The notes under the pieces were generated by a model, which had not been told where the DNA came from, ran no database searches, and was given only the letters and a program-made list of their open reading frames with translations. Both the position numbers and the translations under genes were made by a program. From a virus, in the IMG/VR virus record IMGVR_UViG_3300043409_002481, positions 1-64,000 of that record: a stretch of DNA of 64,000 nt; one strand, 5' to 3'. Of this stretch, positions 9,802-58,572 are shown piece after piece (the first letter of the stretch is position 1; each line of letters opens with the position of its first letter).

Positions 9802-10094
9802 GTGTAATCAGATCGCATCTTGCTTATATCAATGAGCAAGAGTTACAGCGATCGACTGAGTTAGAGGTGATTGCAGCGCGAAACACCCTAGCTACTGGTG
9901 ATTTTAAAGACCGTGAGAAAGCATTCCGATCGCTTACTCCATCATTACAAGCATTACGTAGATCGCAAGCTAAAAAGCGGATGAGTGTTGGCTTTGCTAA
10001 GAAATTCGCAAAGCTATTTAAAGAGGGCAAGATTCCGAATTGGGTAGTTGAGATTTGCGATTTTGAGACGATTGAATTATTAGCGGGTGATTGA
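9346..10094 (+). CDS. Tail assembly chaperone, -1 frameshift product (gpGT-like)
   Basis: -1 frame is open from 9675 through ORF 9867..10094. Confidence 0.8.
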
Positions 10095-10095
10095 T

Positions 10096-13000
10096 ATGGC
10101 TGATGAGAATTATGCAATAAGAGTGAGTTTTGATGGCATCGACAAAGCGATCGGTGACATCAAAACTTTGCAATCCGCGATCGGTAATATCAAAGCACCC
10201 GTTTTAAATTTGGGCGGTGCGGAATCATCCAAAATTGCTGAGGCATCTCTCAAAAAACTACAGCTAGAAGTTGATGCACTAGAAGCAAAGAAAGCGCAAA
10301 GCGCTGCTAACGATCTGAATCGTGCTAACCAAGTAGCAGCTAAGCAAGAGGCTAATGGCGCAAAATTACTAGCTCAACTTGAGAGACAGGAAGCAGTTAG
10401 CCAAAGGCGATTAACCCAAGGCAATGTAAATGGCAATAATGCTGAAGATAAAGTCGCTGTTCGCAATGCCAAGATTTATGAGGAGCAAATCAGATTAAAG
10501 CAGCAATTAAATGCTATTCAAAACACAGCTTTTAGTGATGCTGACAGAGCTAGAGCGGAGGCTTTTGCTAACTCAATCAATAAAGTTAATGTTGAGAAAA
10601 TCAACAAAGAATTTGCAGCGACAAATGTCGGTACTCGTACCTTTATCGGCAATATGCAAGATGCGAGCGCACAGCTCCAAGTGCTTGCAGGTAAGCTAAA
10701 CGAGATTAAAGGTAGCGCACAAACAGCATTTTTAGAGCTAGATACTGCCAGAAAGAAATTATCAACAATCAGCGATGACGCTAACGGGCTTGTAAAAGCT
10801 TTAGCTAATGTTGCCAAGGAAAACGCAAACCAAGCCACTACAGCTCAATTAGCAGGGGCTGCGTATGAAGTTCAATCGGCTGGCTTTGCCAAAACTGCTG
10901 ACACGACCAAGATCCTCGAAGCATCATTAAGAGGCTCTGTTGGTGGATTTTCTGACGTAACTACAGTATCCAAGGCGGCAATTTCTGTACTCAATGCTTA
11001 TGGATTGGGGGCAGATCAGGCGGCTGCTACCATCGATAAATTTACAGCCGTTCAACAATCTGGTTTGATTACGGTTGACCAGTATGCTTCGCAGATCTCG
11101 CGAGTCGCTCCTGTAGCGGCGGCGGCGGGTGTATCGTTGGATCAACTCAATGGATTTATTGCCACTGCGACAGCTTCTGGTGTGCCTGTTGAATCTACAT
11201 TTAGCGGACTAAGACAAGCTTTAGCATCGACAATCAAGCCATCGGCACAAGCCACCGAAGAAGCGAAAAGATTAGGCATTCAGTTTGATGCGACTGCATT
11301 GAGAACCAAGGGGCTTAATGGTATTCTTGCTGATGTTAAAAACTCAGGACTGGCTACTGGCGACTCATTCAGTAAGCTATTTGGCAGTATTGAAGCTGTA
11401 GCAGCAATTCAACCAGCTATTAATGATTTAGGTAAGCTAGAAGCAAATATCAAGGCAAGCGGCGAAAGTGCAGGACTAACCGATAAGAACTTTAACAAAG
11501 CAAAATCATCTCTTAAAGGATTTGCTAACGAAGCTCAGGACGCACTTGCAACTTTGGGCGAAAGGATTAACCAGACCGCAAACTTTAACCCATTGGTATT
11601 AAGTGCGAGAGCTTTGGTTTCAGCTTTTCAGGCATTACCAGAACCAGCTCAAAACATTATTGCGATCGTCGTAGGATTGGGTGCTAGTTTTGTAGCGATT
11701 TCGGCTGCAATTACTGGTACTTTAGCAGTCGTCACCCCGACGATCGCTGCTTTTAAATTACTAGCAGGGGCAATCGTTGAGAAGACTGTTGCAGAAAATG
11801 CATCAGTAGCAGCTACCACAAGGTCAACGGCTGCTGTTGTTTCTCAAGGTGTTGCACAAGGCGCGACAGCCATCAAAACTAAAGCTAGCGCGATCGCGAC
11901 TGGCTTATATAGCCTTGCTACCACAAAGGTTACGGGTGATTTAATTCTAACTAATGCCCAATTAGCGATCAAGAATGTGCAACTAGGGTTGGTTGCTGCT
12001 AAGACAGCGATCGCCACAGGCGCGACGGCTTTATATTCTGGTGCTACGAATATACTTACGGGATCGTTAACGGCTGCTACAGGGGCGGCTAGTGCTTTGA
12101 TTATCCCTTTAGGTTTAGCGGCTGCCGCTGCTGGTGTTTTGTTCGCACAAATCAAAGCAAACCAGATCGCTGAATCGTTGGATGCACTTAACGCGACAGG
12201 TGTAGGCGTAAAAACTTTAGGTGATGAAGCAATTAGATCTGCTACCAAGGCTCAAACATTTAGTAACCAATTAAAAGGACTAACTGCTGATGGTAAAAAA
12301 GCCAGTGAGCAGCAAATCACTGACGCAAAAAATCTAGTAAAAGCCAATGAAGAAAGATTAAAGGCGATCGCTGAGCAAGAAAATAAAATCAAACAAGGTG
12401 GCGCGATTGATGAGACTAAAGGCACTCGCGAAGCTCAGCTATTAGATCTTAAGCAATCAGAAAATGCTTTAAAAGGACAAAACGACACACTCAAGGAGCA
12501 AATCAAATTAAATGAAACTAATGCAACTGCATCGGCAAAATTTGGGGCGGCTGCACAAGTAAATACCGAGGAACTCAAAAAACAAGCGATCGCACTAAAG
12601 GAAACCCAAAACCAAGACGCTGAAAAAGGTATCAAGCGCTCCTTTGATGATGGCAAGGCTAAACGCGATCGCGAGAATGCTGATGCAATCAAAGCAATCG
12701 AAGAGAAAAATGCACTCGCTAAAGGTGAACTAGATCGCAAGCAAGCGCTAGAAACTGAAGCGCTGAAAGAACGTCAAACCCTAGCTCTACAAGACAAGCA
12801 AAGGGCTTTTGATGAGACTCAGAACGCTAAAAAACTACAACTTGAAGATGCTCTTGACGCTAAAAAACGTGCAAATGAGGAGAAACTTAACGCGCTTAAA
12901 CAAGCATTTGACGATAAGCAAAACGCGCTCAAGGAGCAACGAGCAGAGAAGCAACGCAAAGATGATGAGGCATTTGCTAAGGCGCGTTCAGAACGTGATA

Positions 13001-14091
13001 AACAAGCATCTGAGGCTTTATCAGGTGCTAAGCAACTAATCAGTAACGAAGGTACGATCGCCACTGCCAAACCAGAAGATCGGGCTAAGATTGCGGCGCA
13101 ACTTGAAGAAGAAAACCGCATCAGAGCGCAGGCGGCGCAACAAGGTCAAGGCGGTGTGCAAAGTCAAGAGCAGTTAGTTGCACAAGCCAAGCAAATCGCG
13201 CAAGTATCAGCGATCGCCACGGGTGAAGAGCAGAAAAAAGTACAGCTTGCATTAGATGAGTTGGAGAAAGCAAATAAAGCTAAGCAAGCTGAAATTGATA
13301 AAGCTGAGGATGCAAAACGTACTGAAGAAAAACGAGCTAGTGACAAAGCTTTTGAAGCTGAGCTAAATGCGTCTAAACTCGCTTTCGATGCTGAGCAAAA
13401 CACCGCAAAACTCAACTTTGAGAACACTGTACTCAAACCTGAAAAACAAAAAATCGAAGCTGAGTTACAAGCGAGTAAATTAGCCTTTGAACGTGGCGAA
13501 TTAGCAGCGCTCAAAACACAGCAAGCAGCCGATGAACGGGCGCTTAAACTACAACAAACTAACGAGGATTTAGCAGCTAAGAAAGCGGCTGACGCTGAGT
13601 TAGAGTCGATTAAGCTAGCTCAAAAAGAGAAAGAGTTAGCACTAGATCGCGCCTTTGAAGATGCAAAGATTGAACGTGAGAGAGCATTTAAGGAGCAACA
13701 AAGGGCGCTAGACAAAGCATCTGCAATCGAGATACAGCAAATCCTTGGTAAGTCTGCACAGCAAATTATTAGCGCTTTGACATTGGCAACTAAAGGTGGT
13801 ACATCACTTAGCGCCGCTACTGGTGTTGGTGCTCCTAAACTTCCGTCATTTAGTGAAGGTGTTACCAATTTTAAAGGCGGTTTAGCTTTGGTGCATCAAG
13901 GCGAAGCGCTAGTAAATTTACCTAGAGGATCAGACGTTATTCCTGCCAATCAAACCAAGCAGATCATGAATAATAATTCGGGCGGTAACAAAACCTATAA
14001 CGTAAATGTGACGACTGGCGGCGGCGATCCTACTGAGATCGCCTTGCAGATTCAGAGAGAGATGGCGCGATCGGCGGCGTTGAGTAGTTAA
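10096..14091 (+). CDS. Tail tape measure protein
   Basis: About 1330 aa, Ala/Gln/Lys-rich helical; TP901-type core; C-terminal GLALVHQGEALVNLPRGSDVIP motif. Confidence 0.92.
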   Translation: MADENYAIRVSFDGIDKAIGDIKTLQSAIGNIKAPVLNLGGAESSKIAEASLKKLQLEVDALEAKKAQSAANDLNRANQVAAKQEANGAKLLAQLERQEAVSQRRLTQGNVNGNNAEDKVAVRNAKIYEEQIRLKQQLNAIQNTAFSDADRARAEAFANSINKVNVEKINKEFAATNVGTRTFIGNMQDASAQLQVLAGKLNEIKGSAQTAFLELDTARKKLSTISDDANGLVKALANVAKENANQATTAQLAGAAYEVQSAGFAKTADTTKILEASLRGSVGGFSDVTTVSKAAISVLNAYGLGADQAAATIDKFTAVQQSGLITVDQYASQISRVAPVAAAAGVSLDQLNGFIATATASGVPVESTFSGLRQALASTIKPSAQATEEAKRLGIQFDATALRTKGLNGILADVKNSGLATGDSFSKLFGSIEAVAAIQPAINDLGKLEANIKASGESAGLTDKNFNKAKSSLKGFANEAQDALATLGERINQTANFNPLVLSARALVSAFQALPEPAQNIIAIVVGLGASFVAISAAITGTLAVVTPTIAAFKLLAGAIVEKTVAENASVAATTRSTAAVVSQGVAQGATAIKTKASAIATGLYSLATTKVTGDLILTNAQLAIKNVQLGLVAAKTAIATGATALYSGATNILTGSLTAATGAASALIIPLGLAAAAAGVLFAQIKANQIAESLDALNATGVGVKTLGDEAIRSATKAQTFSNQLKGLTADGKKASEQQITDAKNLVKANEERLKAIAEQENKIKQGGAIDETKGTREAQLLDLKQSENALKGQNDTLKEQIKLNETNATASAKFGAAAQVNTEELKKQAIALKETQNQDAEKGIKRSFDDGKAKRDRENADAIKAIEEKNALAKGELDRKQALETEALKERQTLALQDKQRAFDETQNAKKLQLEDALDAKKRANEEKLNALKQAFDDKQNALKEQRAEKQRKDDEAFAKARSERDKQASEALSGAKQLISNEGTIATAKPEDRAKIAAQLEEENRIRAQAAQQGQGGVQSQEQLVAQAKQIAQVSAIATGEEQKKVQLALDELEKANKAKQAEIDKAEDAKRTEEKRASDKAFEAELNASKLAFDAEQNTAKLNFENTVLKPEKQKIEAELQASKLAFERGELAALKTQQAADERALKLQQTNEDLAAKKAADAELESIKLAQKEKELALDRAFEDAKIERERAFKEQQRALDKASAIEIQQILGKSAQQIISALTLATKGGTSLSAATGVGAPKLPSFSEGVTNFKGGLALVHQGEALVNLPRGSDVIPANQTKQIMNNNSGGNKTYNVNVTTGGGDPTEIALQIQREMARSAALSS

Positions 14092-16775: not shown

Positions 16776-17405
16776 ATGGCAAAGTACTGGCTAGACACTG
16801 AATTTATTGAAGACGGCAAAACTATAGATTTGATTTCTATCGGTATTGTTTGCGAAGATGGGCGCAAATATTACGCGATTAATAGTTGGTGTGACTTTTC
16901 CAAGGCTAGTCAGTGGGTCAAGGAAAATGTTATAGCCAAATTACCTGATTCATTTGTTAATCCTCAAACCGCATCACCGTCAGAAGTTGAGGGAATGTTT
17001 TACTGGAAGGATAAACCGACGATCGCTAAAGAAGTCGCTGAGTTTTTTGAGTGCATTGGCAATCCAGAGTCAATTATTGATGATGGCTTATACCCTCGCT
17101 TTATGCGATGGCTAGGGTTTTCAAGTGTAGGAATTAAATTAAAATATCACTGGGAATGCGCAGAAAAGCCCGAAATTTGGGCTTACTATGCAGATTATGA
17201 TTGGGTCGTATTCTGTCAACTTTTTGGCGCAATGATGGATTTACCCAAAGGATTCCCCATGTATTGCCGTGATATTAAACAAGAATGCGATCGCCTTGGT
17301 AATCCTAAATTACCAGAGCAAGGCAAGGGTGAACACGATGCCTTAGCTGATGCTCTTTGGAATAAACAAGCTTATGAATTTTTGCAAGGTGTAGTGGTAA
17401 AGTAA
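16776..17405 (+). CDS. DEDDh 3'-5' exoribonuclease (Rv2179c/RNase AS-like)
   Basis: LDTEFIEDG..IDLISIGIV, YADYDWV, HDALADA motifs. Confidence 0.85.
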   Translation: MAKYWLDTEFIEDGKTIDLISIGIVCEDGRKYYAINSWCDFSKASQWVKENVIAKLPDSFVNPQTASPSEVEGMFYWKDKPTIAKEVAEFFECIGNPESIIDDGLYPRFMRWLGFSSVGIKLKYHWECAEKPEIWAYYADYDWVVFCQLFGAMMDLPKGFPMYCRDIKQECDRLGNPKLPEQGKGEHDALADALWNKQAYEFLQGVVVK

Positions 17406-23038: not shown

Positions 23039-23746
23039 TCATAACTCAATAGATTGGCTAGGATCGAGCTTACAGATAGCATCGTAAATGACGCGCTTAA
23101 TCAGGGTTAGAGCGCCGCCCCATTTCTGGATTGGTACTGATTCCCATGCTTTCAGCATACGCATAATGCTTGTTAGCTCTGATAGGCGATCGCTTTCGGA
23201 GCGAGTGAGGTTGTCTTCTAGGATTTGAGTCTGTTGATATAGCTTTTTATATTCAATCGTGCTACCTCTCAGAGCCGCGTCTCTTCCATCGATCTGGACT
23301 TTGGCATCAGAACTAACAGTCTCTAAAGCTTCTCGCAGTCTTTCGATTTCTTTGTTCTTAGTGGTTAATTCTGCACATGCGGAATAAGCACCATCACAAA
23401 TTGCCTTCCAATTTGTGATTTGATGCCTCAACTCATCGCACTCATTTAACGCCAATTTAAGGCTGTGCTGTAACGCGATTGTGGGATCGGGAATGGGGAG
23501 AAGGAATTCAGCTAACTTATCAGCACAGTACGCAGAGAAATCAATATCACTAGCATTGCTAATATCTGTTACAAACGCACCAACAAGCCAAAATTCATCA
23601 CAATACTGCGATGCTGTAAAAAGCCCAGATTCTCCACCGCGTTCTAATGTTAATTTCACAGGAATTGATTGCCCTTCCTTCAAAATTCTGTCAGCTAATT
23701 TGTAATCTGTACTAAATTGATAATATTGGTTATTCATAATATTCAT
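23039..23746 (-). CDS. Hypothetical coiled-coil protein
   Basis: ORF track. Confidence 0.6.
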   Translation of the reverse strand: MNIMNNQYYQFSTDYKLADRILKEGQSIPVKLTLERGGESGLFTASQYCDEFWLVGAFVTDISNASDIDFSAYCADKLAEFLLPIPDPTIALQHSLKLALNECDELRHQITNWKAICDGAYSACAELTTKNKEIERLREALETVSSDAKVQIDGRDAALRGSTIEYKKLYQQTQILEDNLTRSESDRLSELTSIMRMLKAWESVPIQKWGGALTLIKRVIYDAICKLDPSQSIEL

Positions 23747-24096
23747 CCATAGTTTGTTTATACCAAGTCCTATCCAATCGCTCGACCATGCTCACCGCAT
23801 AGCAGCGGCGCAACCACGCGATCTTAATCTCTCTCAATCTGCGATCGCGGTATTCAATCTGCGAGTCCACAAATCGCGCATACCAGCGGCAAATAAAAGC
23901 GAAGACGATTAAGGAGATCGGGATTAAAAGTAAATTAGTCATAGCAGCTCCAAATAGTATCGATCGGTTTTCTTGTGGTAGTAATAATGGCTAGATTTTG
24001 GCTTTATTACTATGTTTTGCGGGTTTGGGATTTCCTGTAATTGGAGATAAAGTTTTGATGCTAGTGATCGCGTTAAGGGCGCTTCTGTCATATTTT

Positions 24097-24561
24097 TTAC
24101 GCGGCTTCAACTTGCGACAATTCAGGCAAGGGGAATAGATTTAAGTCCCCTTGCACTGGCAACGAATTATAAAAATCATCCCATTCAGCGATCGCAAAAT
24201 CGCTTAACGCTTCAATCAAATCAGAGTTGCGCTCTACGATTTGATGCGGTAATGAGGGGAAAGATATAGACATTTCACCGCAAGATTCATCATTAAACTT
24301 GAGAGAGAAATTTAACTTGCAAGGCTCTTTAAATTCATCGTAATCAAAAGAGATTTGATTAACGACAAAATCACAGGTTAGCTCTAAAGGGTAATGCCTC
24401 TCAATCAATCCATTTAGGAATTTTTCAACCTCATCAGCCAATGCATCAGAATTAAAGATAAGCCTCTCATGCGTTACCTTTTGGCTGTTGTGGTCAAGGT
24501 AAGAGATCTTAGTTATCAATTTCTCTTTGTCAAATTTAATAGCTGTTAAACGTCGTTTCAT
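24097..24561 (-). CDS. Hypothetical protein
   Basis: AAGGAG RBS; follows FtsK gene. Confidence 0.65.
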   Translation of the reverse strand: MKRRLTAIKFDKEKLITKISYLDHNSQKVTHERLIFNSDALADEVEKFLNGLIERHYPLELTCDFVVNQISFDYDEFKEPCKLNFSLKFNDESCGEMSISFPSLPHQIVERNSDLIEALSDFAIAEWDDFYNSLPVQGDLNLFPLPELSQVEAA

Positions 24562-24574
24562 GGTGTTTACTCCT

Positions 24575-26257
24575 TTAAATAATTTTCCTTGCTTCTAGTC
24601 CATTTCTTCCAGCGCTTCGAGTTTCCACATAGCCTTGCTCCTCTAAATACTGAAGATAGTTTTGTACTTCAGAGATCGGCGTTTTATTCCTTTTTAGGTC
24701 AGTGATTGACTCACGAATATGATTATCGCGCTCCCATCCCCTACCATTTAGAAAGTCAACAATTTTTAAAAATATTGGCTCTCTATCTTGCAGAAAATCA
24801 AAGTCAGAGTTATCAACAATCTCGCCAGATTTAACCGTGATTGTGTTGGATGGCTCTGCTAAATCATCAAGGGAGTAGACAGGATCGCCCTTGGTTAACT
24901 TCGCAAAGTCGCTAGGTTCGCAAAGCAAAGACTGTAAGCGATCGCCATTAAAAAATAGATCGCCACGTCCTAGCAAATCGCGTCCATCGTAAGGGACTTT
25001 ACCGAGTAAACACTCAGTATCGCCTTCTTCAAGTACCTTCAAAAGTGCTCTAGCTGGTAGATTAGAGCGAATCTTTTTATCGATCACATCAACAGCTTTT
25101 TGGGTAACGATACCCTCAGAGATTCCAGAAGCCCTAGCCATTTGACCTAATCGAATATTAATATTCATGATTTCAGCCCATTGCGCCTTACCCTCCTTAT
25201 CCTCTCCACAGGCAGATTTAAGATCGCCGTATTCGTCATTTAAGAAGAAAATACGTGGCAACTGCTCAGATTTAGAAACCCTTGCATTGTATTGATCAAT
25301 ATTTTCAACCTTATACTCTGCAAACAGCGCATAGCGCCGCATCATTTCAGCTATCAGCCATCTACCAATTAAAATTACTTCTTCAGGTGTGTGGATAATT
25401 GGGATTAGCAAATTAGCACAATCCTCAAAAGCAAAAAACGATACCCGTTTAGGATCGCAAATTACCACTAAGAACTCTTGAGGCGATCGCCCAATCAATA
25501 GCGACAATAATAAGCTCTGTAGCCATACAGACTTACCCGATCCTGTAGTTCCAGCCGCTAGGATGTGGCAAGTCTCAGGATGCGATAAATCAATAGATAC
25601 GAGTTTATTGTTAATATCAACACCGATCGCCGCTTCTACTTTTTGACTAGATTTCCAGTAGTCAGAAAATCTAGCAATTTGGCGATCGCTGCGAGGGGTA
25701 TCAATGGCGATCGCACCTTTACTGATAGAGATAATAGGCGGCGAATCAAGGGCTAACTCTAGGTGTAATTCCTTGCCAATCCCTAGCACTTTTTGCGCTG
25801 TGCAATTAGTAGGTTTTACCAATGTGCGAACAAACGATGGAGATTTTAATTCACCAGCAAAATCACACTCTAACTTTTGGTTGTATAGCGCTCTTAGAAT
25901 CGGATGCGATGGAACTGGCTTAACTTGCTCTGCTTGCATCAAAGTTACTTCACGCTTAGGCGGCGCATAGGATACCGCTAAATGATTAGATAAGCCCTCA
26001 TTAGCTCGATTAACAACACTTAGATGGTTTTCACTGGCTAAACTTTGATTAAGTCTTGAGAGCTTAAAACATGTTGCTGTAGCTGCTAATTGAGAGATAA
26101 AGATAAAGCCCTTTGCGAAATCATTGGACTGAAATGGAATAGATAGGAATAGCAAGAAAGCGATAAATGAACTCGAAAGGCTCCCATAGTGAGAATAGCG
26201 CTGAGTAATAAGTACTAGCGCTACCTGTGATACATGGAAATCTTTTGTTAAGTTCAA
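24575..26257 (-). CDS. FtsK/SpoIIIE-family DNA translocase
   Basis: HILAAGTTGSGKS Walker A, CDPKR, LPRIFFLNDEY Walker B, RLGQMARASGI, LLGRGDL; N-terminal TM segments; C-terminal winged helix. Confidence 0.92.
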   Translation of the reverse strand: MNLTKDFHVSQVALVLITQRYSHYGSLSSSFIAFLLFLSIPFQSNDFAKGFIFISQLAATATCFKLSRLNQSLASENHLSVVNRANEGLSNHLAVSYAPPKREVTLMQAEQVKPVPSHPILRALYNQKLECDFAGELKSPSFVRTLVKPTNCTAQKVLGIGKELHLELALDSPPIISISKGAIAIDTPRSDRQIARFSDYWKSSQKVEAAIGVDINNKLVSIDLSHPETCHILAAGTTGSGKSVWLQSLLLSLLIGRSPQEFLVVICDPKRVSFFAFEDCANLLIPIIHTPEEVILIGRWLIAEMMRRYALFAEYKVENIDQYNARVSKSEQLPRIFFLNDEYGDLKSACGEDKEGKAQWAEIMNINIRLGQMARASGISEGIVTQKAVDVIDKKIRSNLPARALLKVLEEGDTECLLGKVPYDGRDLLGRGDLFFNGDRLQSLLCEPSDFAKLTKGDPVYSLDDLAEPSNTITVKSGEIVDNSDFDFLQDREPIFLKIVDFLNGRGWERDNHIRESITDLKRNKTPISEVQNYLQYLEEQGYVETRSAGRNGLEARKII

Positions 26258-27122
26258 TGCCCTGCTCTCAATGCTTTTTCTAATTTGTGGTTAGCAGCTT
26301 TTAATCCTTCATCTGATACAGATCTAAGCTGCACATCGCTTTTAAATCCAGATTTATCCAGTAATTCACGATGCTTGTCTTCTAGTTGTTTGCGAGATTC
26401 CGAAACCTCTACTACTGCAACTTTAGGTTTGAGATAAGTCTCGTAAGCCCAACTACCAGCAAGCCAAGCAGCAGACAAAACACAAGAACTCATGGCGACT
26501 AAAAAGGCTGTGCCAATTGCTCTGACATGATTAAGGTTGTGTCTGTGATGAGTTGTAGCCATCTCGAATATCTCGCAATAATTGATTCTTTTTAAACGCA
26601 GATTTAGATTCCAAAATTTGCTCTGGTTGCGAGTTTAGGATGTAAGCTGCAAAGCCCAAATATCCTAAACTCGCAATAGTTAAAGCCGCTGAGACAATCT
26701 CTTTAATCTTCATGCTCTTGGCAATACTTATCTTGATATTCGTCGGAATCCCAATTTTTGGGAATGCTAATCAAAGCCCCAAAAGCTTGCAGGATTGCAT
26801 TGATAAGCCTGCTCATTTTGCCCTCTGTATTTGTGCGGATGTAGGGATAGCAACGAATGCGACAACAATTGAGACGCTTAAAATCGCGCCACAGATAACA
26901 AGCAAGGCAAGCATCACAATGATCTGATCTTTCTTTTGTAGTCGTCGGATCAGATCTTCGGTAGGAAGCGAGGCTAGATCAGGTGATGTCATCATTATTT
27001 TTCTTGCCTCTAAAAAGTAAAATTGGAATCATAATAACTCCAGCGATCGCAGCCGAGATGACGGCGAAAGGCTTGGCGATCGGATTGTGAATTGCGCCAT
27101 CTGATTCTTGGCTGCATCTCAT
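26254..27122 (-). other. Five coupled small hydrophobic ORFs: 26979..27122 (47 aa), 26813..26995, 26703..26816 (37 aa), 26531..26713, 26254..26562
   Basis: Four have a clear TM stretch, one is amphipathic; overlapping stop/start codons; two were translated by hand because they are below the track cutoff. Confidence 0.65.
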
Positions 27123-27589
27123 TATTTCAGCGCCCCTAAAGCCTTAAGCTTTGCTTCAACTTCATCCAATTCTGAGAGCTGCTCATCAGTAGCTTCAGAG
27201 CTTTTCTCTAATGCCACTAACTCATCGAATCGGGCTGTAAGTGCTTCGATTTCTGTAGGATTAGGCTCAACAGGGGAAGATGGAATGCACAAGAGCATAG
27301 GCGTATGACTCAGAGCGATCGGACTGTAGTTTTTCGACAAATTGGTAAAAAAATCAGGATCGATCTTTGGCTCTTCTAACGCACTATCGAACTCATCGCG
27401 CCATGCTTCAAATTTAATTCGTTGCACAACTGATCGGGCTTTATTGCGTTGATGGGTGTAAATCATCTCAAGACTACCTTCTAAGCCCTCAATAACGGGG
27501 ATAGAGGTACTATTTGCATCTTGAGATGGCTTATCTTGAGATGCTTGATCAGCTTTTACTTCAGCTTTGGTCTTGTATTGAGTGTTCAT
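27122..27589 (-). CDS. Hypothetical protein in the FtsK operon
   Basis: ORF track, coupled. Confidence 0.65.
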   Translation of the reverse strand: MNTQYKTKAEVKADQASQDKPSQDANSTSIPVIEGLEGSLEMIYTHQRNKARSVVQRIKFEAWRDEFDSALEEPKIDPDFFTNLSKNYSPIALSHTPMLLCIPSSPVEPNPTEIEALTARFDELVALEKSSEATDEQLSELDEVEAKLKALGALK

Positions 27590-27828
27590 AATGATCTTAA
27601 GATCCTTGCTATTTTTGTAGTATTTCTATTTCTCGAAGCGCCAAACGCTCTAGCAGCCTTGATTTGAGCGTTCTCAAGAATAATCTTTAACTCACTCTTT
27701 GTATAAGGTGGGTTGCCGACTCCTGAAAAAACTAAATCGCGCCATCTTTCAAATGTTTTTTGATTTAGTCCGTATGCCCTAATTATCTGCTGAACGCTAA
27801 GCTGTACCTCTGTTTGCGGGTGCGTCAT
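27586..27828 (-). CDS. MerR/excisionase-like HTH protein
   Basis: LSVQQIIRAYGLNQKTFERWRD...PYTKSEL. Confidence 0.6.
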   Translation of the reverse strand: MTHPQTEVQLSVQQIIRAYGLNQKTFERWRDLVFSGVGNPPYTKSELKIILENAQIKAARAFGASRNRNTTKIARILRSL

Positions 27829-27858
27829 GGCTTACGTCATGGCTTACGTCATGGCTTA
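27823..27858 (-). repeat. 12-bp tandem repeat x3 over the start codon
   Basis: TAAGCCATGACG x3 on the minus strand. Confidence 0.95.
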
Positions 27859-27923
27859 TACTACAGCGCTGTAGCAAATAACGTCAAGTGCTATATTTAT
27901 ATTTGTTTCTTAAGTGGTAATTT

Positions 27924-28166
27924 ATGGCAGGGCAACCTCGCAACATTAGGATCGATGATGATATCTATAGTGCGCTTATTCAGTGTGTAGCGGCGCGTAA
28001 TGCTAGGTTTGAAGCTGATGGCAGTAAAGAGCGAATCACTATTATTGATTTAATAAATGAGTCTTTGCGGTTACAGATGCCTATACATGTTTGGGATAAG
28101 CTAAATAATCGCGTGACCAAATTAGAGCAACAAGTAAGCAATATTGAGGAGAGATTAGACAAATAA
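27924..28166 (+). CDS. RHH-type regulator with coiled-coil tail, divergent from the FtsK operon
   Basis: PRNIRIDDDIYSAL...TIIDLINESL. Confidence 0.6.
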   Translation: MAGQPRNIRIDDDIYSALIQCVAARNARFEADGSKERITIIDLINESLRLQMPIHVWDKLNNRVTKLEQQVSNIEERLDK

Positions 28167-28596
28167 AAAAGGCGGATCGCTGTAGGGAGTGCGATCCGCC
28201 TTCACATCAAGAAAGTAACAAGTAACAAAGGTAACAATGCTCTTTTAGTATAGCTTTTAAATTTAAAAATAAAACATGCAACTACAATTAACCGAATATC
28301 AAGTACAAGAGTCTTACCCCGCTCTGCTAGCAAATACCCATGATGTGCGATCGCTGAAAGGCTGTCACAATTGCAGATTTAATAATTGGCGACTCTGCAC
28401 TAAAGTACCGTCTAGGGATAGCGCTAGTTTTTATGCTGCGAACGATTGCCATGATTGGCAAAACAAAAGTACTTAAAAGCTAATCTTGATTTTAACCATC
28501 GCGATTACTCAAAGCTTTGCGCTGTATAGAAAAAGTGCTTAAACGCTAATCGGTAAAAAGCGAATATTTGCGGATATAGCCAAATGACGGTCAAAT

Positions 28597-28639
28597 AAAA
28601 AAAAGAACTGCTCAAATAATTTGAGCAGTTCTTTTTTTT
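28597..28639. terminator. Bidirectional terminator
   Basis: A-tract GAACTGCTCAAA-TAA-TTTGAGCAGTTC T-tract. Confidence 0.85.
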
Positions 28640-29126
28640 ATATTTGCTTGAACGGTCTACCACGTTTTACCGTGCCGTCACCGCTCCTGCTTTTCCCGCA
28701 ATGCTTACAGATCCATTGCTGTATGCCTTTGCGTTTGCCGTTGCGTAGCCATTGGTGATCGCATTCTGGGAACTCAAAGAACTCAATCTTAAGACTGAGT
28801 TTTTGAACATATGGCGCAATTACGCGATCGCAATCATTAACTAATAAATCATTGCTGGCTGATGGCTCGATCCCATTACGATAGCTAACCGTAATGTGAG
28901 GTCTGGGCTTGTGGGGAATATTATCAGGCATTAACACAGAGATCGCTTGAATATCCTTATTCCAGATATTAGCGATCGCTGTTGCTTCAAACTCAGTGCC
29001 GACTAGGTGCTTATACTGAATCTTTTCCACATCATAAAACAGGGTGATGTGATGCGGACTGCCGTTTTTGAATATTGGCAGTACTACAAGGGGCGATCGT
29101 AGTACTGCCCAGAGAATACCTTTCAT
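28638..29126 (-). CDS. 2H phosphoesterase fused to an InsA-like zinc ribbon and AT-hook
   Basis: Two HxT motifs (HHITLF, PHITVS); CDH...GKRKGIQQWICKHC; KRGRP. Confidence 0.7.
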   Translation of the reverse strand: MKGILWAVLRSPLVVLPIFKNGSPHHITLFYDVEKIQYKHLVGTEFEATAIANIWNKDIQAISVLMPDNIPHKPRPHITVSYRNGIEPSASNDLLVNDCDRVIAPYVQKLSLKIEFFEFPECDHQWLRNGKRKGIQQWICKHCGKSRSGDGTVKRGRPFKQI

Positions 29127-41587: not shown

Positions 41588-42550
41588 ATGTCAACACATC
41601 TTTTGTTGAATGAGCGCCCTTTACAGGTTTTGCCGACGCTAGCAGCGATATTTGGGATTAATGAAGCGATCGCAATTCAACAAATTCACTGGGTTATTAC
41701 GATCAAGCATGAACACCAAGACGATAAAACTTTTTACGAAGATTTTATGTGGTGTAAATACACATTAGTTCAATGGGGCGAAAAAATGCCTTGGCTTTCA
41801 GGCTCTAGTATTTTCCGACTTTTCAAAAAGCTTGAAAATGAAGGAATTGTGAAGACCGTTCAACCCTATGCATCAAGCAGAGATCAGACGAAATGGTACA
41901 GGATCGATTATGACGTTTTGCATGTCAGATCGAAAACTGCATCTAGTCAATTTGACGATCTCCCATCTAGTCAAAATGACCAAATCAGATCTAGTCAAAA
42001 TGACTACATGATCAATAGATCTAAAGATCTTAAAAATTTAAATAAAAAACAGAGTTTGCAAGATCAGAAAAAATTACCACCTGAACAAAAAACAGATCCC
42101 CTCTTGGATCTAGGTAAACCTGAATCCGAGGATCTTGAGAAGACCCCCCCCATAGCCCCCCCCGCCGTGCCGCGAAATTATGCTCAAGAGATGAGCGATC
42201 GCTTTAACAACAAAACAAATCGATTTGCTCCTAAAGGTTTAGACTTGCAGGGTTTTGCTAATTGGCACTTAGGCGGTAAGCGCAATAACTGGCATCTAGA
42301 TTTGATTGCGATCGCCAAAGCTCATTTAAAGAAGCATGAAAAGCCTTTTGGTGATGGCGACGCGATTAATTTTATTAACGGTATTTGCATGAAAGAAGAT
42401 TGGGCAAAATTCGAGCTTTTTGCGGATGAAGCTAAAGTCCATCAGCAAAAGTCCCAAGCTCAAACACAGCGATCGCCCGCACCAATACCGCAAGAATTAA
42501 CCGCAACAGCACCCCCCGCACACATTAGAGAGAGATTTAAGACAGCATGA
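41588..42550 (+). CDS. Replication initiator (lambda O-like)
   Basis: LA..FGINEAIAIQQIHW, DQTKWYRIDY; internal iterons; followed by DnaB. Confidence 0.85.
   Translation: MSTHLLLNERPLQVLPTLAAIFGINEAIAIQQIHWVITIKHEHQDDKTFYEDFMWCKYTLVQWGEKMPWLSGSSIFRLFKKLENEGIVKTVQPYASSRDQTKWYRIDYDVLHVRSKTASSQFDDLPSSQNDQIRSSQNDYMINRSKDLKNLNKKQSLQDQKKLPPEQKTDPLLDLGKPESEDLEKTPPIAPPAVPRNYAQEMSDRFNNKTNRFAPKGLDLQGFANWHLGGKRNNWHLDLIAIAKAHLKKHEKPFGDGDAINFINGICMKEDWAKFELFADEAKVHQQKSQAQTQRSPAPIPQELTATAPPAHIRERFKTA
41941..42050 (+). repeat. Putative replication origin: three iterons plus AT-rich tract
   Basis: ATCTAGTCAA(AA/TT)TGAC at 41941, 41965, 41989 (24-bp period). Confidence 0.8.
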
Positions 42551-43902
42551 ACGATTTAAGCACGCCCGATCTGCTATGTTCTAACGTTTCAGAAATCAAC
42601 GTGGTTGCCACTTTTTTGCAGAGTGGAGACTGGTTACCCCCCCTCACCGCTATACTCACACCTGAAATGTTTTTCAACCACCTTCACGGCGCTATTTTTG
42701 GCATGGCTTTGAAATTGCATCAACAAGGTTGTCAAATAACACCCGAAATCGTCGCTCAAGAGTTGGAAACCAAAAGCCAAATGGCAGGGGCAGGTATTTT
42801 TGATTATCGCGGCAAAATTTATGAGATCATGGAGAGCACGTTTCCAACACCTAGCTGTTTGGAGTATGCCCATTTAATCCGAGATAAATATAAATCTCGC
42901 AAGTATCGCGATTTCTGCAAACAATCGGCTGGACTATTTCAAGAATTGCCAATTGATGAAGCTAAAGAAAAGTTTGAGTCTGGACTTGTAGAGCTATCAA
43001 AAATCAGCTCTAGTGATCATACAGTCCCTCTCTCTAAGCCGATGGCTGATGTGTTTACTGATTTAATGGAAGTCTACGATCGTAAGCAAGCGGGATTAAT
43101 GCATGAAGTACTTTTGCCTACTGGTATTAGAGACTTTGACGCTTTGATCGGTGGTGGAATTGGTGAGGAACAATTCATTACAATCCTTGCTGATACAGGG
43201 ATCGGCAAAACTACCGTACTCAGAAAAATCATCAAAACGGCTGCTTCTTTGGGAGTTCCTACCCTTGAGTTCAGTATTGAAATGAGCGCAGAAAGCATGT
43301 CTCAAAAGATTTACTCAGACTTGGCTCAAATCCCTACAACAGCTTTACGAAATGGCGCGATCCGTGATGACCAATGGGAAAAACTAGCACAAGTTAGAGA
43401 ATCTTATATTGATCTTCCTTCGCTGATTAATGATCAAGTTCGCAACATCGAAGATATAATCTCTATCTCAAGAAATTATTATGCTAAGTATGGAAAGATT
43501 GGCATCATTGCAATCGATTATTTACAGCTAATCGAATCGACTAGGAAGGAATTACAGTATGACGATCGCCGTCGCTTTGTCTATGCTTGCAACGAATTGA
43601 ATGCACTCAAGAAAGAGCTAAAAACTCGCATCATTTTACTATCGCAGATTGGGCGCAACGTAAAAGATAGATCCGATAAACGCCCGACTCTTCACGATGC
43701 TGCTGAGTCTGGAAGGATTGAGCAAACGAGCGACATTTTGATATCCGCTTACCGCGATGAACATTACAACATAGATACTACTGATCGAGGAATCATGGAG
43801 ATATCCGTACTGAAGGGGCGATCGGTTCCTAGAGGGACAGTCAAGGTTTTATTTGATGGTCAATACTCAACTATTCAGGATCTAAAATATGGATCTTTCT
43901 AA
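42547..43902 (+). CDS. dnaB: Replicative DNA helicase, DnaB family
   Basis: ADTGIGKT, FSIEMS, IDYLQL, LLSQIGR, KRPTLHDAAESGRIEQ. Confidence 0.95.
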   Translation: MNDLSTPDLLCSNVSEINVVATFLQSGDWLPPLTAILTPEMFFNHLHGAIFGMALKLHQQGCQITPEIVAQELETKSQMAGAGIFDYRGKIYEIMESTFPTPSCLEYAHLIRDKYKSRKYRDFCKQSAGLFQELPIDEAKEKFESGLVELSKISSSDHTVPLSKPMADVFTDLMEVYDRKQAGLMHEVLLPTGIRDFDALIGGGIGEEQFITILADTGIGKTTVLRKIIKTAASLGVPTLEFSIEMSAESMSQKIYSDLAQIPTTALRNGAIRDDQWEKLAQVRESYIDLPSLINDQVRNIEDIISISRNYYAKYGKIGIIAIDYLQLIESTRKELQYDDRRRFVYACNELNALKKELKTRIILLSQIGRNVKDRSDKRPTLHDAAESGRIEQTSDILISAYRDEHYNIDTTDRGIMEISVLKGRSVPRGTVKVLFDGQYSTIQDLKYGSF

Positions 43903-55464: not shown

Positions 55465-56418
55465 TTAAGCGACAAAAGCAGCGTCCTTTACACCAGCAAG
55501 GCGAACAAAGGAGCGAGGGTTGTAGGTTGCGAAATTATTGAGCCAATCCATGCGAATCAAGCGCTTGGTTTCGGTTTGCATCTCACCCATGTCGCGCACA
55601 TCGATACCGCCTGTTTGGATACCTGTAAGATCTTCAGGGCTAAACGCAACGACGTAGATCGAAGAGGTTACAGCCGATCCGCCACCGCTTCCAGTTTCTG
55701 CAAAGCCAAGGATTTGATCGCCTTCAGCGTCTTCTTCAATTGCGTACCAAGGAATACCCTTAAATGTAGGAGCTTCTACGCCTACGTCATTTTTGGTCTG
55801 CACAACATAACCAGAAATCGAAGGGTTAGAGATTGCATCTTGGTAGCGCAAAGCCAACTCTAGATTAGAGTAGATACGAAGTTGAGCGCGAGGATTAACA
55901 GGACGTACCTTAGCGATCGCACGACGTAAAGAGCTGAGAGATAAAGCGTCACCGCCTGAAGTACTGCCAGCTTGGATTAGTTGAGTACCGCCTGCACGGG
56001 TTTTAAGCCCTGAAAATTCTTTGGGGTTAGCAGCATGATCGCCATTAAAGAAATCACCATGCCATTTCAATTGCAACGACTTGAGAGCCATCGAAATTTG
56101 AGTGGTCAAGACGTTTTCGCCATACAGCTTTAAGCCAGCCGTATCGATCTTGATTTCGCCACCAGCGATAACCACTTTCTCGATCCGTCTTTCAACTTCA
56201 CCGATATCTGCTGTAAAACCTTCATTGATGGAGCGGTTAGCCATTACAGGAAGTCGCTTTTCTTGTAACCACTCAACGACACCGCCCGCACGTTCTTCAA
56301 ACGTAATTACGTCAAGGATCGGAGAATTACCCGCATACTGCTCGACAATACCAGCCTTTAAGATGTCACCCATCTCACGGGCTTGTTTCGCCATTTCTAA
56401 TAGTGTTAAAGCTGCCAT
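55465..56418 (-). CDS. Major capsid protein
   Basis: 317 aa; ALTLLEMAK, RSINEG, FFNGD..NPKEFSGLKTR, RLAGV; phage/encapsulin-like HK97 pattern. Confidence 0.9.
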   Translation of the reverse strand: MAALTLLEMAKQAREMGDILKAGIVEQYAGNSPILDVITFEERAGGVVEWLQEKRLPVMANRSINEGFTADIGEVERRIEKVVIAGGEIKIDTAGLKLYGENVLTTQISMALKSLQLKWHGDFFNGDHAANPKEFSGLKTRAGGTQLIQAGSTSGGDALSLSSLRRAIAKVRPVNPRAQLRIYSNLELALRYQDAISNPSISGYVVQTKNDVGVEAPTFKGIPWYAIEEDAEGDQILGFAETGSGGGSAVTSSIYVVAFSPEDLTGIQTGGIDVRDMGEMQTETKRLIRMDWLNNFATYNPRSFVRLAGVKDAAFVA

Positions 56419-56949: not shown

Positions 56950-58572
56950 ATGGCAACAACAGAAACTTTAATCACGCTACAGCCAAATCAATTGCCAGAG
57001 GCGATCGCTAAAGGCTATCGTGGCGGTAATATCCTTGGCGATGACAACAACCCAACATTAAAGAGCATTGCTTATCAAAGACAGCAAGCTAATGTAAGGC
57101 GTTGTATCGATTTCTACGAAGGTCAAAGCGCTTGGATCTATGGCGAAAACCTCGATCAGATTATTGATAATTTGGCAGAAGAGTATCTACCCCTTATGCC
57201 AAGCGAAACACCGAAAGAGTGGTATTTCAGATTAAGGCGATCGCTATTCGTTAACTTCTTTAAACCAGCCGTCAAGATTGTATCTAGCTTGCTAAGTAAA
57301 TGGGTGCTTAGTGGCAATGTACCTGAATCGGTTGTCAATGCATCTAAGAACTTTGACAAGCGCGGCACATCAATTAGAGCATTCTTTCTTGAAGCCGATC
57401 GCATGGCTGTACGTGATGGCTTTGTGGGAGTGCTTACCCTCTATCCTAATTTTGGCGAAATTCCTAATCGAGCCGTAGAACAACAATTGGATTTACGCCC
57501 CTACTCAGTACTAATTCCCCGCCTTGATATTGATATCAAGGATTACGAATACACTAATGACGGATCAGTATTGCTTAAGCATGTGACCATTGATCGTAGT
57601 GAGGTGATTAGCGAAACCCGTTACAAGCAATCGATGAAAAATTATTGCTGGGAATACGAGCTAATCAAGGTACAGGAAGAAGATCGTATTTATTATGCGG
57701 TCATGCGATCGGTAACTTGCATCGAAACTAACGACAAAGGCGAAAAGGAATATATAGAGGTGGAAGCACCCAAACCATTGCTAGACACCAATGGTAAGCC
57801 ATTGAGTCAAATCCCCTTTGTTCTTTACTCAGTAACCAGCGCTAACCCTTGGGATACGATACCGCCGTTGCTTGATTTGCAGCAAAAAAATCATACTTAT
57901 TACCAAGTATCTAGTGATTGGCTTGCAACGGTTCGCAAGATGCAACCCACGGCTGTACGTGAGCATATTGATTTTATTCCTAAAACCTTGTCACCTCTAT
58001 CCACAGGCGGCGCGTCTGTTATCGAGACGGTGATAACTCAGATTGGAGCTGCTAAGGTTTACTATTTGCAAGCTGATGCCAATAGTGTCGCGCCTATGAT
58101 TCAAGCGCTAGACCGATTAGAGGCATTGATTAAGCAGACTGTTTTCAACTTTTTAGGCGAGTCATTTGTCCAACAATCTGCTACTGAGGTAAGCATCAAA
58201 GCAGGGCAAAATGAAGCTGGTTTACAAGAGTATGAGGTCAATAAAGAGTCATTCTCTCAGCAAATTTTCTGTCATTGGGCTATGTGGGAAGGTGAAGACG
58301 TAACCGAGGATCGCGGTACAATTGACGTAGATTTGAGCTTTATTCTTGCCCCTGCGGATGTGAATCTGATTCGCACTATATTTGAGGTGATCAATAAAGG
58401 ACTAACAGAAGAAGCAGCTACCGAGATTTTACACAGGATTAACTTCCTACCAAAAGATCAGAAGATTGTGGCGATCGCTTCACCTGTTGAGATGGTTGCT
58501 AATACTAATCAAAGCCAATCGATAGAGACTGAAGAAGATGATAATGATGACGAATCGGAGTCGGAATCATGA
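56950..58572 (+). CDS. Portal protein (DUF4055-like)
   Basis: EYLP...E..KEWYFRLRRSLFVNFF, IPFV, PPLLDL, SATE; 540 aa with acidic tail. Confidence 0.85.
   Translation: MATTETLITLQPNQLPEAIAKGYRGGNILGDDNNPTLKSIAYQRQQANVRRCIDFYEGQSAWIYGENLDQIIDNLAEEYLPLMPSETPKEWYFRLRRSLFVNFFKPAVKIVSSLLSKWVLSGNVPESVVNASKNFDKRGTSIRAFFLEADRMAVRDGFVGVLTLYPNFGEIPNRAVEQQLDLRPYSVLIPRLDIDIKDYEYTNDGSVLLKHVTIDRSEVISETRYKQSMKNYCWEYELIKVQEEDRIYYAVMRSVTCIETNDKGEKEYIEVEAPKPLLDTNGKPLSQIPFVLYSVTSANPWDTIPPLLDLQQKNHTYYQVSSDWLATVRKMQPTAVREHIDFIPKTLSPLSTGGASVIETVITQIGAAKVYYLQADANSVAPMIQALDRLEALIKQTVFNFLGESFVQQSATEVSIKAGQNEAGLQEYEVNKESFSQQIFCHWAMWEGEDVTEDRGTIDVDLSFILAPADVNLIRTIFEVINKGLTEEAATEILHRINFLPKDQKIVAIASPVEMVANTNQSQSIETEEDDNDDESESES

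Follow-up and report, generated by a model that had tools for sequence, protein, structure and literature searches.

Why should a tailed phage that encodes its own terminase also carry a membrane-anchored DNA motor? The question is raised by positions 24,575 to 28,166 of the IMG/VR virus record IMGVR_UViG_3300043409_002481, where an operon of small genes closes with a gene for an FtsK-like ATPase and faces a divergent regulator gene. We analysed the first 64 kb (hereafter the window) of this linear 75.7-kb tailed-phage record (CheckV completeness 72%). A sequence-only reading had likened the operon to the transfer genes of Streptomyces plasmids and had proposed that it moves phage DNA from cell to cell along a cyanobacterial filament, or segregates a plasmid-state prophage. 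We found the operon to be a membrane module that is conserved and regulated, that includes an intact motor for double-stranded DNA, and that occurs both in tailed phages and on small plasmids of filamentous cyanobacteria. From this we infer that the module translocates the DNA of its own element across a membrane, and spread along the filament is the reading that we favour, by analogy and with a probability of roughly 35%.

The operon lies on the minus strand (27828-24575) and encodes, in order, the proteins HTH80, sol155, p47, p60a, p37, p60b and p102 and the 560-aa ATPase, with all junctions overlapping by 1 to 32 nt. When compared with the sister phage L008, the ratio of nonsynonymous to synonymous substitution rates (dN/dS) was 0.10-0.40 for every conserved gene, which argues that these genes are real and points to purifying selection on the operon. 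The coupled operon with five small hydrophobic peptides, as first described, was recovered only in part: all the genes are in place and overlap, and four of the five small proteins have a hydrophobic stretch of transmembrane (TM) grade, but p37 is amphipathic and p47 is doubtful as a gene. No tblastn match to p47 was obtained in any sister locus, and this window-specific frame may not be a gene, whereas p37 has a 36-aa positional counterpart in L008. The protein p102 always directly precedes the ATPase, and proteins of the same layout, motif and position were found in the plasmid ABRG53g (108 aa), in the element L011 (119 aa) and in the distant phage contig L125 (120 aa). Searches of Pfam, PHROGs, NCBIfam, PADLOC and the ESM Atlas gave no match for sol155, p102 or the other small proteins.

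The genes read as helix-turn-helix (HTH) and ribbon-helix-helix (RHH) regulators are present as described, although profile support for these calls was weak. HTH80 matched HTH_23 with an E value of 0.0023, below the Pfam cut-off. The RHH-like protein of the window had no significant Pfam match, and only its plasmid counterpart matched RHH_5/CopG (0.002); the gene has positional homologues in all sister loci (40-91% identity). Between the divergent genes, a promoter-like site has its -10 hexamer covered by a palindrome (Table 1), a layout also seen in L004, L008 and L010. Since promoter-like sites are no commoner in this region than in shuffles, the site is only consistent with being the operon promoter. 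A perfect 23-bp inverted repeat flanked by A and T runs (28595-28641) looks like a bidirectional terminator closing the RHH side.

The ATPase itself had been described as a membrane-anchored FtsK with a C-terminal winged helix, a description borne out by profile, structural and modelling evidence. In an AlphaFold2 model (predicted local distance difference test, pLDDT, 78), helices are followed by a disordered linker, an alpha + beta motor, a second linker and a winged helix. The anchor is modelled as helices 9-39, 46-73 and 76-96, the second being just moderately hydrophobic; one or two hydrophobic helices fall in the first 75 residues, and no FtsK_4TM match to the four-TM division domain was found. 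The motor possesses the alpha and RecA-like beta domains of FtsK, intact Walker A (GTTGSGKS) and Walker B (DEYGD) motifs and the arginine finger, these motifs being invariant in 25 sequences. It matched PF01580 (2.4e-29; 102.8 bits against a cut-off of 24), the solved FtsK motors in the PDB (7.6e-53) and PHROG 1358, and a Foldseek search with the model returned FtsK with DNA as the best match (6t8b, 9e-28), followed by TcpA (1e-19). The C-terminal domain was modelled with three to four helices and a beta hairpin (pLDDT 85-90). It had no Pfam FtsK_gamma match, and hhalign against the gamma domains of six FtsKs gave a probability of 0.2%.

A profile search of 1.84 billion representatives placed this winged-helix domain in 134 proteins, some of them translocases and many of them short. 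In a set of 660-1135 aa it directly follows the DUF3987 helicase domain of Prim-Pol/Toprim primase-helicases. The presence of the domain behind a DUF3987 helicase fits the loading of a ring ATPase at a specific DNA site, and suggests that it may be a site-specific loading domain common to the ring ATPases of mobile elements. The proteins P0261, P0268, P0273, P0274 and P0304 are primase-helicases of this arrangement, about 1000 aa in length.

The comparison with TraB implied that the motor might descend from the Streptomyces translocases. A hidden Markov model (HMM) of the family's motor core gave about 630 bits for the family itself, about 375 for a soluble 470-aa clade, about 300 for cyanobacterial fusions of an exonuclease, a PD-(D/E)XK nuclease and FtsK, 283 for a plasmid FtsK of Pseudanabaena PCC 7367, 214 for the FtsK of phage Cr-LKS4, 165-224 for ordinary FtsKs (true FtsKs as a whole span 165-300) and 167 for phage Omega gp203, against 90 for TcpA, 41 for pIJ101 Tra and no match for pCQ3 TraB. 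In a maximum-likelihood (ML) tree, the family was monophyletic (100/100) and sister to the soluble clade (100/98). The cyanobacterial nuclease-FtsK clade came next, with support (90/89) below the tree tool's starred threshold, and TcpA and Tra were long-branch outgroups. These scores and the tree show that the motor is an FtsK, neither a TraB nor a TcpA, and descent from TraB was not borne out. The phylogeny proposed for the ATPase could thus be settled for TraB and TcpA; its third term, the host FtsK, was lacking, because a Pseudanabaena metagenome-assembled genome (MAG) contained no PF01580 match over the cut-off beyond the element's own copy, which makes that comparison moot.

The main new finding came from the sister phages. 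They keep the anchor and the C-terminal winged helix (65-94% identity) around three different motors, and the anchor is 67-94% identical even in sister phages with other motors. The FtsK alpha/beta motor found in the window is type 1. The type-2 form is 441 aa long and has the motifs GNSGSAKSS and FVICDELNA; the type-3 form, of 419 aa, has GETGSGKST and LVILDEF. Identities between pairs formed a checkerboard. For anchor, motor and winged helix in turn, the window shares 94, 26 and 90% with L004, and 84, 35 and 65% with L008, whereas L008 shares 33, 79 and 57% with the plasmid ABRG53g, and L004 shares 64, 93 and 62% with P0067. A joint profile of types 2 and 3 matched FtsK (5.9e-5) and HerA and TcpA (1.4e-3) in the PDB. 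The model of the 441-aa form had the FtsK motor (2.8e-7), EssC and TcpA as top matches, and the type 3 motor matched the mad8 and HerA models. Types 2 and 3 are minimal FtsK/HerA-superfamily ATPases.

In L125 the anchor is a chain of its own. The operon of this contig likewise starts with an RHH gene, followed by a homologue of HTH80, a soluble protein and TM proteins, but its FtsK is soluble, bears the winged helix and comes after a separate multi-TM anchor protein of 108 aa. The checkerboard of identities and the split in L125 indicate that specificity resides in the ends, whereas the motor behaves as a plug-in. Such a checkerboard would be expected of a generic engine flanked by ends that determine its partner and its DNA specificity. 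The module offers a clear example, from nature, of a DNA motor with exchangeable parts, which serve as anchor, engine and address label.

The plasmid-like character of the module, which had been read from its gene content, was confirmed by homologous modules on CyRepA1 plasmids of Pseudanabaena. ABRG53g, a 12.5-kb circular plasmid of Pseudanabaena sp. ABRG5-3 with a CyRepA1 replication protein, carries an RHH gene and four small genes, of which two encode membrane proteins and the last is p102-like. Its ATPase, of type 2 and 450 aa long, shares the winged helix of the phage protein. A 9.5-kb metagenome contig has the module together with CyRepA1 (4.4e-87), and a 5.4-kb contig has the same module with no recognisable replication gene. 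Type-2 homologues were present in 6 of 400 other cyanobacterial species genomes; many are on 10-17-kb contigs, and the named sources are Pseudanabaena, Rivularia and Microcoleus. Through the module, the gene pool of CyRepA1 plasmids is thus connected with that of tailed phages. ABRG53g also encodes, separately, a 461-aa ParA-type (AAA_31) ATPase with a long N-terminal extension (L091:8160-9545). No relaxase and no mating-pair formation system is given for ABRG53g in PLSDB, and a search for VirB4 (PF03135) gave no match in the record of the phage, in ABRG53g or in a sister genome that is 100% complete (80,032 bp, direct terminal repeats). MOB-suite classed the plasmid as 'non-mobilizable', as it did pIJ101 and pCQ3. 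Both of the latter plasmids transfer by TraB.

The host of the phage is a cyanobacterium, because the HIP1 palindrome GCGATCGC occurs 96 times in the window against about 1 expected; L125 is similarly dense in HIP1. A filamentous cyanobacterial host had been predicted, and every named relative does come from a filamentous genus. About 50 full-length relatives of the ATPase were found in metagenomes (43-92% identity), the named ones all from Pseudanabaena or Pseudanabaenaceae, and only two of 185,579 species genomes contained a full-length member, namely the Pseudanabaena MAG and one uncultured cyanobacterium. The same operon is present on seven IMG/VR contigs, each from a different metagenome. 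Among the sequencing runs listed as matching, all were freshwater and lake metagenomes and none was of RNA; the one strong match may be the source sample.

Taken together, these findings led us to a model in which a repressor-controlled, self-contained membrane apparatus would move the element's own double-stranded DNA. A presumably hexameric FtsK-type pump would be held in the cytoplasmic membrane by its N-terminal hairpin and would dock to a set of small membrane proteins, with p102 as the constant partner. At short repeats in phage or plasmid DNA, the C-terminal winged helix would load the pump, probably with sequence specificity, and the pump, if placed at the septum, could then drive DNA through the septal membranes into the neighbouring trichome cell. 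Copies of the phage or plasmid would in this way spread along the filament without virions, as TraB and Spd proteins spread plasmids through Streptomyces hyphae. We ranked cell-to-cell spread first because the plasmid has a partition ATPase, because the layout mirrors that of TraB/Spd and because the module is found in an isolated phage of another filamentous host. Small plasmids carry the module without relaxase or VirB4, and on ABRG53g the ParA-type gene means that partition is already covered. A fuller version, in which cyanophages and plasmids share a movement machine that pumps their double-stranded genomes through septa, seems to us rather doubtful. This would be the first TraB-like transfer outside Actinobacteria, and the machine, with motors that plug in, would have arisen on its own from an FtsK lineage of cyanobacteria.

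Candidate loading sites for the winged helix were noticed as well. The heptamer TCTTGAGA(T) has six exact copies in the window, three of which lie inside a cluster near the start of the operon (Table 1). The window has only 8 heptamer clusters in all, and this one is conserved in L004, L007, L008 and L010. In ABRG53g, all four copies of the TCTTGAGA heptamer and five copies of CAAGACA are found in the 130-bp spacer directly after the ATPase gene, and TCTTGAGA clusters adjoin the module in phages and plasmid of the same winged-helix type. Elements of the other winged-helix subtype were without the TCTTGAGA motif and had nine copies of GTCAGC or TCAGCA, 8-11 bp apart, in linker-coding DNA. In L011 (9380-9463), nine GTCAGC copies inside the FtsK linker alternate in spacing between 8 and 11 bp (a 19-bp unit); L012 has nine TCAGCA copies at the same place of its gene. 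That the L011 repeats fall in all three reading frames argues for a repeat of the DNA rather than of the peptide. The TCTTGAGAT sites and the GTCAGC array are candidate loading sites for the winged helix and its type-B counterpart, respectively. The same repeat-cluster scan, applied to pIJ101 and pCQ3 with clt as a positive control, gave nothing interpretable.

Several observations weigh against spread along the filament. The motor is by its sequence no relative of TraB, so that the analogy would be organisational only, and no homology between Spd proteins and the small proteins could be detected. Septal peptidoglycan would also have to be crossed, and no hydrolase was seen in the module. The repeat clusters were noticed post hoc and are leads; the phage TCTTGAGA sites lie in coding DNA for a repeated SQD peptide, and the plasmid repeats could be a terminator, iterons or a centromere. 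In addition, phages whose hosts are not filamentous, such as those of Listeria, Staphylococcus and Ralstonia, commonly have FtsK genes. Only two cyanophage records matched in the phage collection, both from Cylindrospermopsis, and such a gene is not in every phage of filamentous cyanobacteria.

If the movement-machine reading is true, a single adsorption event could take over a whole trichome, and movement of DNA between cells would mean virion-independent spread of phages and plasmids in bloom-forming filamentous cyanobacteria. The idea is testable, since ABRG5-3 is in culture with the plasmid form, and Cr-LKS4 and Cylindrospermopsis are an isolated phage-host pair.

The alternative that survives best is segregation, or septum clearance. 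Here, the pump would sit at the closing septum of a host lacking FtsK and move phage-plasmid copies into both daughters, the small proteins targeting the divisome. This is the canonical job of FtsK, and the motor nests within true FtsKs. The host side also fits: when 401 genomes from across the cyanobacterial phylum were sampled, 352 yielded nothing FtsK-like at 1e-10, and the Pseudanabaena MAG has the element's copy only. Whatever the module does, this result draws attention to the fact that most of the searched cyanobacterial genomes have no FtsK. As for the phage, the window had been noted to lack an integrase, and this was extended to the whole 75.7-kb record: no tyrosine or serine recombinase was detected there, in the complete sister or in a 95%-complete sister. 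Since no recombinase was found and a replication module is present (Table 1), an episomal state is plausible. Family members are also found on separate 20-44-kb contigs within Pseudanabaena assemblies. An AAA_31-type ParA was not found in the phage either, and a search of the 75.7-kb genome for over-represented, strand-skewed 7- to 9-mers resembling KOPS (FtsK-orienting polar sequences) yielded only HIP1. We place segregation second, not far below spread along the filament, and hold it to be less likely than not. Against it, ABRG53g has its ParA-type ATPase beside the module; the layout recurs in the isolated phage Cr-LKS4 (in which an integrase was not searched for), where segregation would be irrelevant if that phage is lytic; and three to five extra membrane proteins and the swapping of motors are left unexplained.

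Could the module instead be a weapon? A membrane-bound exclusion or defence system would act against competing mobile DNA, for instance by expelling or blocking incoming DNA. FtsK/HerA ATPase domains do occur in defence proteins, and domain-level PADLOC matches were obtained to SspH (7.7e-40), mad8 (2e-12) and HerA. The motor's nearest relatives in cells are proteins that fuse FtsK to two nuclease domains, present in about 38 of the 401 sampled genomes (~10%). At 850-930 aa, the fusion joins an FtsK alpha/beta motor to a PD-(D/E)XK nuclease and a 3'-5' exonuclease. It looks like a defence or repair protein with an SspH-like ATPase domain. Rapid domain shuffling, patchy distribution (as for the type-2 ATPase) and carriage in accessory regions are likewise typical of conflict genes. 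Yet no nuclease, toxin or other effector domain was found anywhere in the module, and there was no full-length PADLOC match: only the ATPase aligns, to positions 1471-1736 of the 1766 in the SspH model, and the other operon proteins have none. Moreover, a winged helix that is predicted to be sequence-specific and is conserved with the element fits recognition of self-DNA better than that of foreign DNA. A role in conflict, which we rank third, is less probable than segregation but a rival to be taken seriously.

Another membrane role in the phage cycle is improbable, be it in lysis (through holin-like peptides), in the entry of the genome or in replication attached to the membrane: small membrane proteins beside tail genes do resemble lysis cassettes, and the winged-helix family is also found in plasmid replication primase-helicases, but a 12.5-kb plasmid that carries the module needs neither lysis nor injection, which excludes a lysis cassette; the mid-genome position in the complete 80-kb sister, away from the first-entering end, together with the occurrence on plasmids, excludes first-step genome entry; and FtsK alpha/beta is a double-strand translocase fold, not that of a helicase. 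No endolysin was found among 30 larger open reading frames (ORFs), in a scan that was not exhaustive.

Downstream of the ATPase, d70 and d235 are conserved directly after the operon in sister phages, are fused as one 208-aa ORF in L008, and are possibly the operon tail. In the window, d154 and d50 intervene. They have no counterpart in any of the seven sister loci (tblastn) and no family match, and lie outside the conserved module; the insert has its own promoter-like site (TTGACA-16-TAAGAT, 24533-24506). Elsewhere in the window we noted a single tRNA-Pro (TGG) gene on the minus strand (1843-1913) and, in the tail-gene region, a 209-aa protein (16776-17405) with an Rv2179c-like 3'-5' exoribonuclease domain (1.2e-11).

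Table 1. Features of the module and of the rest of the window. Identities are to sister phages; aa ranges are residues of the ATPase.
Feature	Position	Strand	Remarks
Tape measure	10087-14091		
d235, coiled-coil protein	23039-23746	-	tblastn 32-49%
d70, TM protein	23730-23942	-	tblastn 62-83%
d154 (154 aa) and d50 (50 aa)	23939-24561	-	insert between ATPase and d70
FtsK-like ATPase, 560 aa	24575-26257	-	TTG start at 26257
C-terminal winged-helix domain	24584-24799	-	aa 487-558; AlphaFold2
FtsK alpha/beta motor	24878-25915	-	aa 115-460
Membrane-anchor domain	25949-26257	-	aa 1-103; hydropathy 1.6
p102, bitopic membrane protein	26254-26562	-	basic N-terminus, TM, helical C-domain; 78-81% identity; dN/dS 0.21
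p60b, membrane protein	26531-26713	-	N-terminal anchor; 66-74% identity; dN/dS 0.34
p37, amphipathic acidic mini-protein	26703-26816	-	hydropathy 1.28, not TM-grade; dN/dS 0.40
p60a, single-pass membrane protein	26813-26995	-	hydropathy 2.96; 45-52% identity; dN/dS 0.27
p47, one-TM mini-ORF	26979-27122	-	hydropathy 2.65
sol155, acidic soluble protein, 155 aa	27122-27589	-	85-88% identity; dN/dS 0.13
TCTTGAGA(T) cluster, candidate cis site	27465-27679		3 exact and 3 one-mismatch sites; spans HTH80/sol155 junction
HTH80, small HTH protein, first gene of operon	27586-27828	-	64% identity in 7 sister phages; dN/dS 0.38
Three exact tandem copies of 12-bp unit CGTCATGGCTTA	27823-27858		5' leader; repeat search
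Sigma-70-like promoter TTGACG-18-TAGTAT	27858-27887	-	between divergent genes
Palindrome CTACAGCGCTGTAG	27861-27874		covers -10 hexamer of promoter-like site
RHH-like regulator, 80 aa	27924-28166	+	divergent from operon; ORF and positional homologues
DnaD-like initiator and DnaB helicase	41588-43902		
Major head protein	55465-56418		
Portal	56950-58572		
Large terminase	59896-61347		

The phage was confirmed to have a terminase of its own, and portal, capsid and tape measure were likewise found in the window, which also encodes antirepressors. An FtsK in such a phage is not new in itself, because FtsK-like genes are widespread in phages: 284 records in the phage collection had one, mostly Bacillus and Mycobacterium phages, as did at least 98 IMG/VR contigs. 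These FtsK/SpoIIIE-like proteins (PHROG 1358 and 3551) include those of Mycobacterium phage Omega (gp203), Bacillus phage BSP9 and the Cylindrospermopsis phages Cr-LKS4 and RM-2018a; like the ATPase described here they are accessory motors of tailed phages that have their own terminase, and none has a described function. In Cr-LKS4 the whole layout recurs: a Cro-like gene comes together with genes for an HTH protein, for three TM proteins of small size and for an FtsK whose N-terminus includes a hydrophobic segment. Unlike the module, the other phage FtsKs fall in different clades and are without the pair of anchor and winged helix, Omega gp203 having no anchor. A literature search, including Pseudanabaena or Cylindrospermopsis with phage and FtsK, found nothing on this cyanobacterial module.

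The best match in sequence and fold is chromosomal FtsK/SpoIIIE, which has in common with the ATPase an alpha + beta motor with all ATPase motifs and the order of membrane part, linker, motor and C-terminal DNA-binding domain. The differences lie in the absence of a 4-TM N-domain, in a winged helix unrelated to gamma, and in the coding by phage or plasmid instead of host. The second-best structural match, TcpA (pCW3, Tn916-type), is also FtsK-like, has an N-terminal anchor and is encoded by mobile elements, but it works with a relaxase and a VirB4-type type IV secretion system (T4SS) and is a distant outgroup in the tree. The nuclease-FtsK fusions (~850 aa) and SspH-like defence proteins differ in having nucleases and neither anchor nor winged helix. 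Type VII secretion ATPases (EssC/EccC), which have two or three FtsK-like ATPase domains in tandem and WXG100 substrates close by, were rejected, as there is a single ATPase domain here and TIGR03928 scored 74 bits against a cut-off of 778.

Movement of double-stranded DNA between cells by such ATPases has precedents. In the crenarchaeal Ced system, an FtsK/HerA-superfamily ATPase with small membrane proteins carries it out. In Thermus transjugation (PMC5365140), TdtA, an ATPase of the same superfamily, is reported to push or pull double-stranded DNA between cells with no classical T4SS. TdtA and Ced, likened here by description only, are chromosomal or borne on integrative and conjugative elements, not on phages.

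The closest likeness in organisation is to the Streptomyces TraB/Spd systems (pSVH1, pIJ101, pCQ3), which serve conjugation and intramycelial spread of double-stranded DNA. According to Thoma et al. 2015 (PMC4447253), they consist of a repressor read divergently, of small, diverse membrane proteins that are coupled in translation, and of a translocase in the membrane whose C-terminal domain recognises DNA, the spd genes being 3-7 in number, overlapping and too diverse for sequence matching, and TraB homologues have been found in Actinobacteria only (Guglielmini et al. 2012, PMC3548315). The organisation claimed for the module in the sequence-only reading agrees with that description. The TraB winged helix recognises repeats (clt) on its element, whereas here the repeat clusters are candidates only. 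There is no detectable common descent; the small proteins come before the translocase here and after it in Streptomyces; the module belongs to a tailed phage of a diderm cyanobacterium, and its motor is of three interchangeable kinds. In both systems the repressor is divergent, the genes for several small and diverse membrane proteins overlap by their stop and start codons, and one FtsK-like translocase has a membrane part at its N-terminus and a winged helix at its C-terminus; in both, too, small plasmids that lack relaxase and T4SS are carriers and the host grows as filaments. By this analogy, the module looks like a Streptomyces-style DNA-moving machine of independent origin, and if it does move DNA between cells, double-strand conjugation of the Streptomyces type would have evolved more than once.

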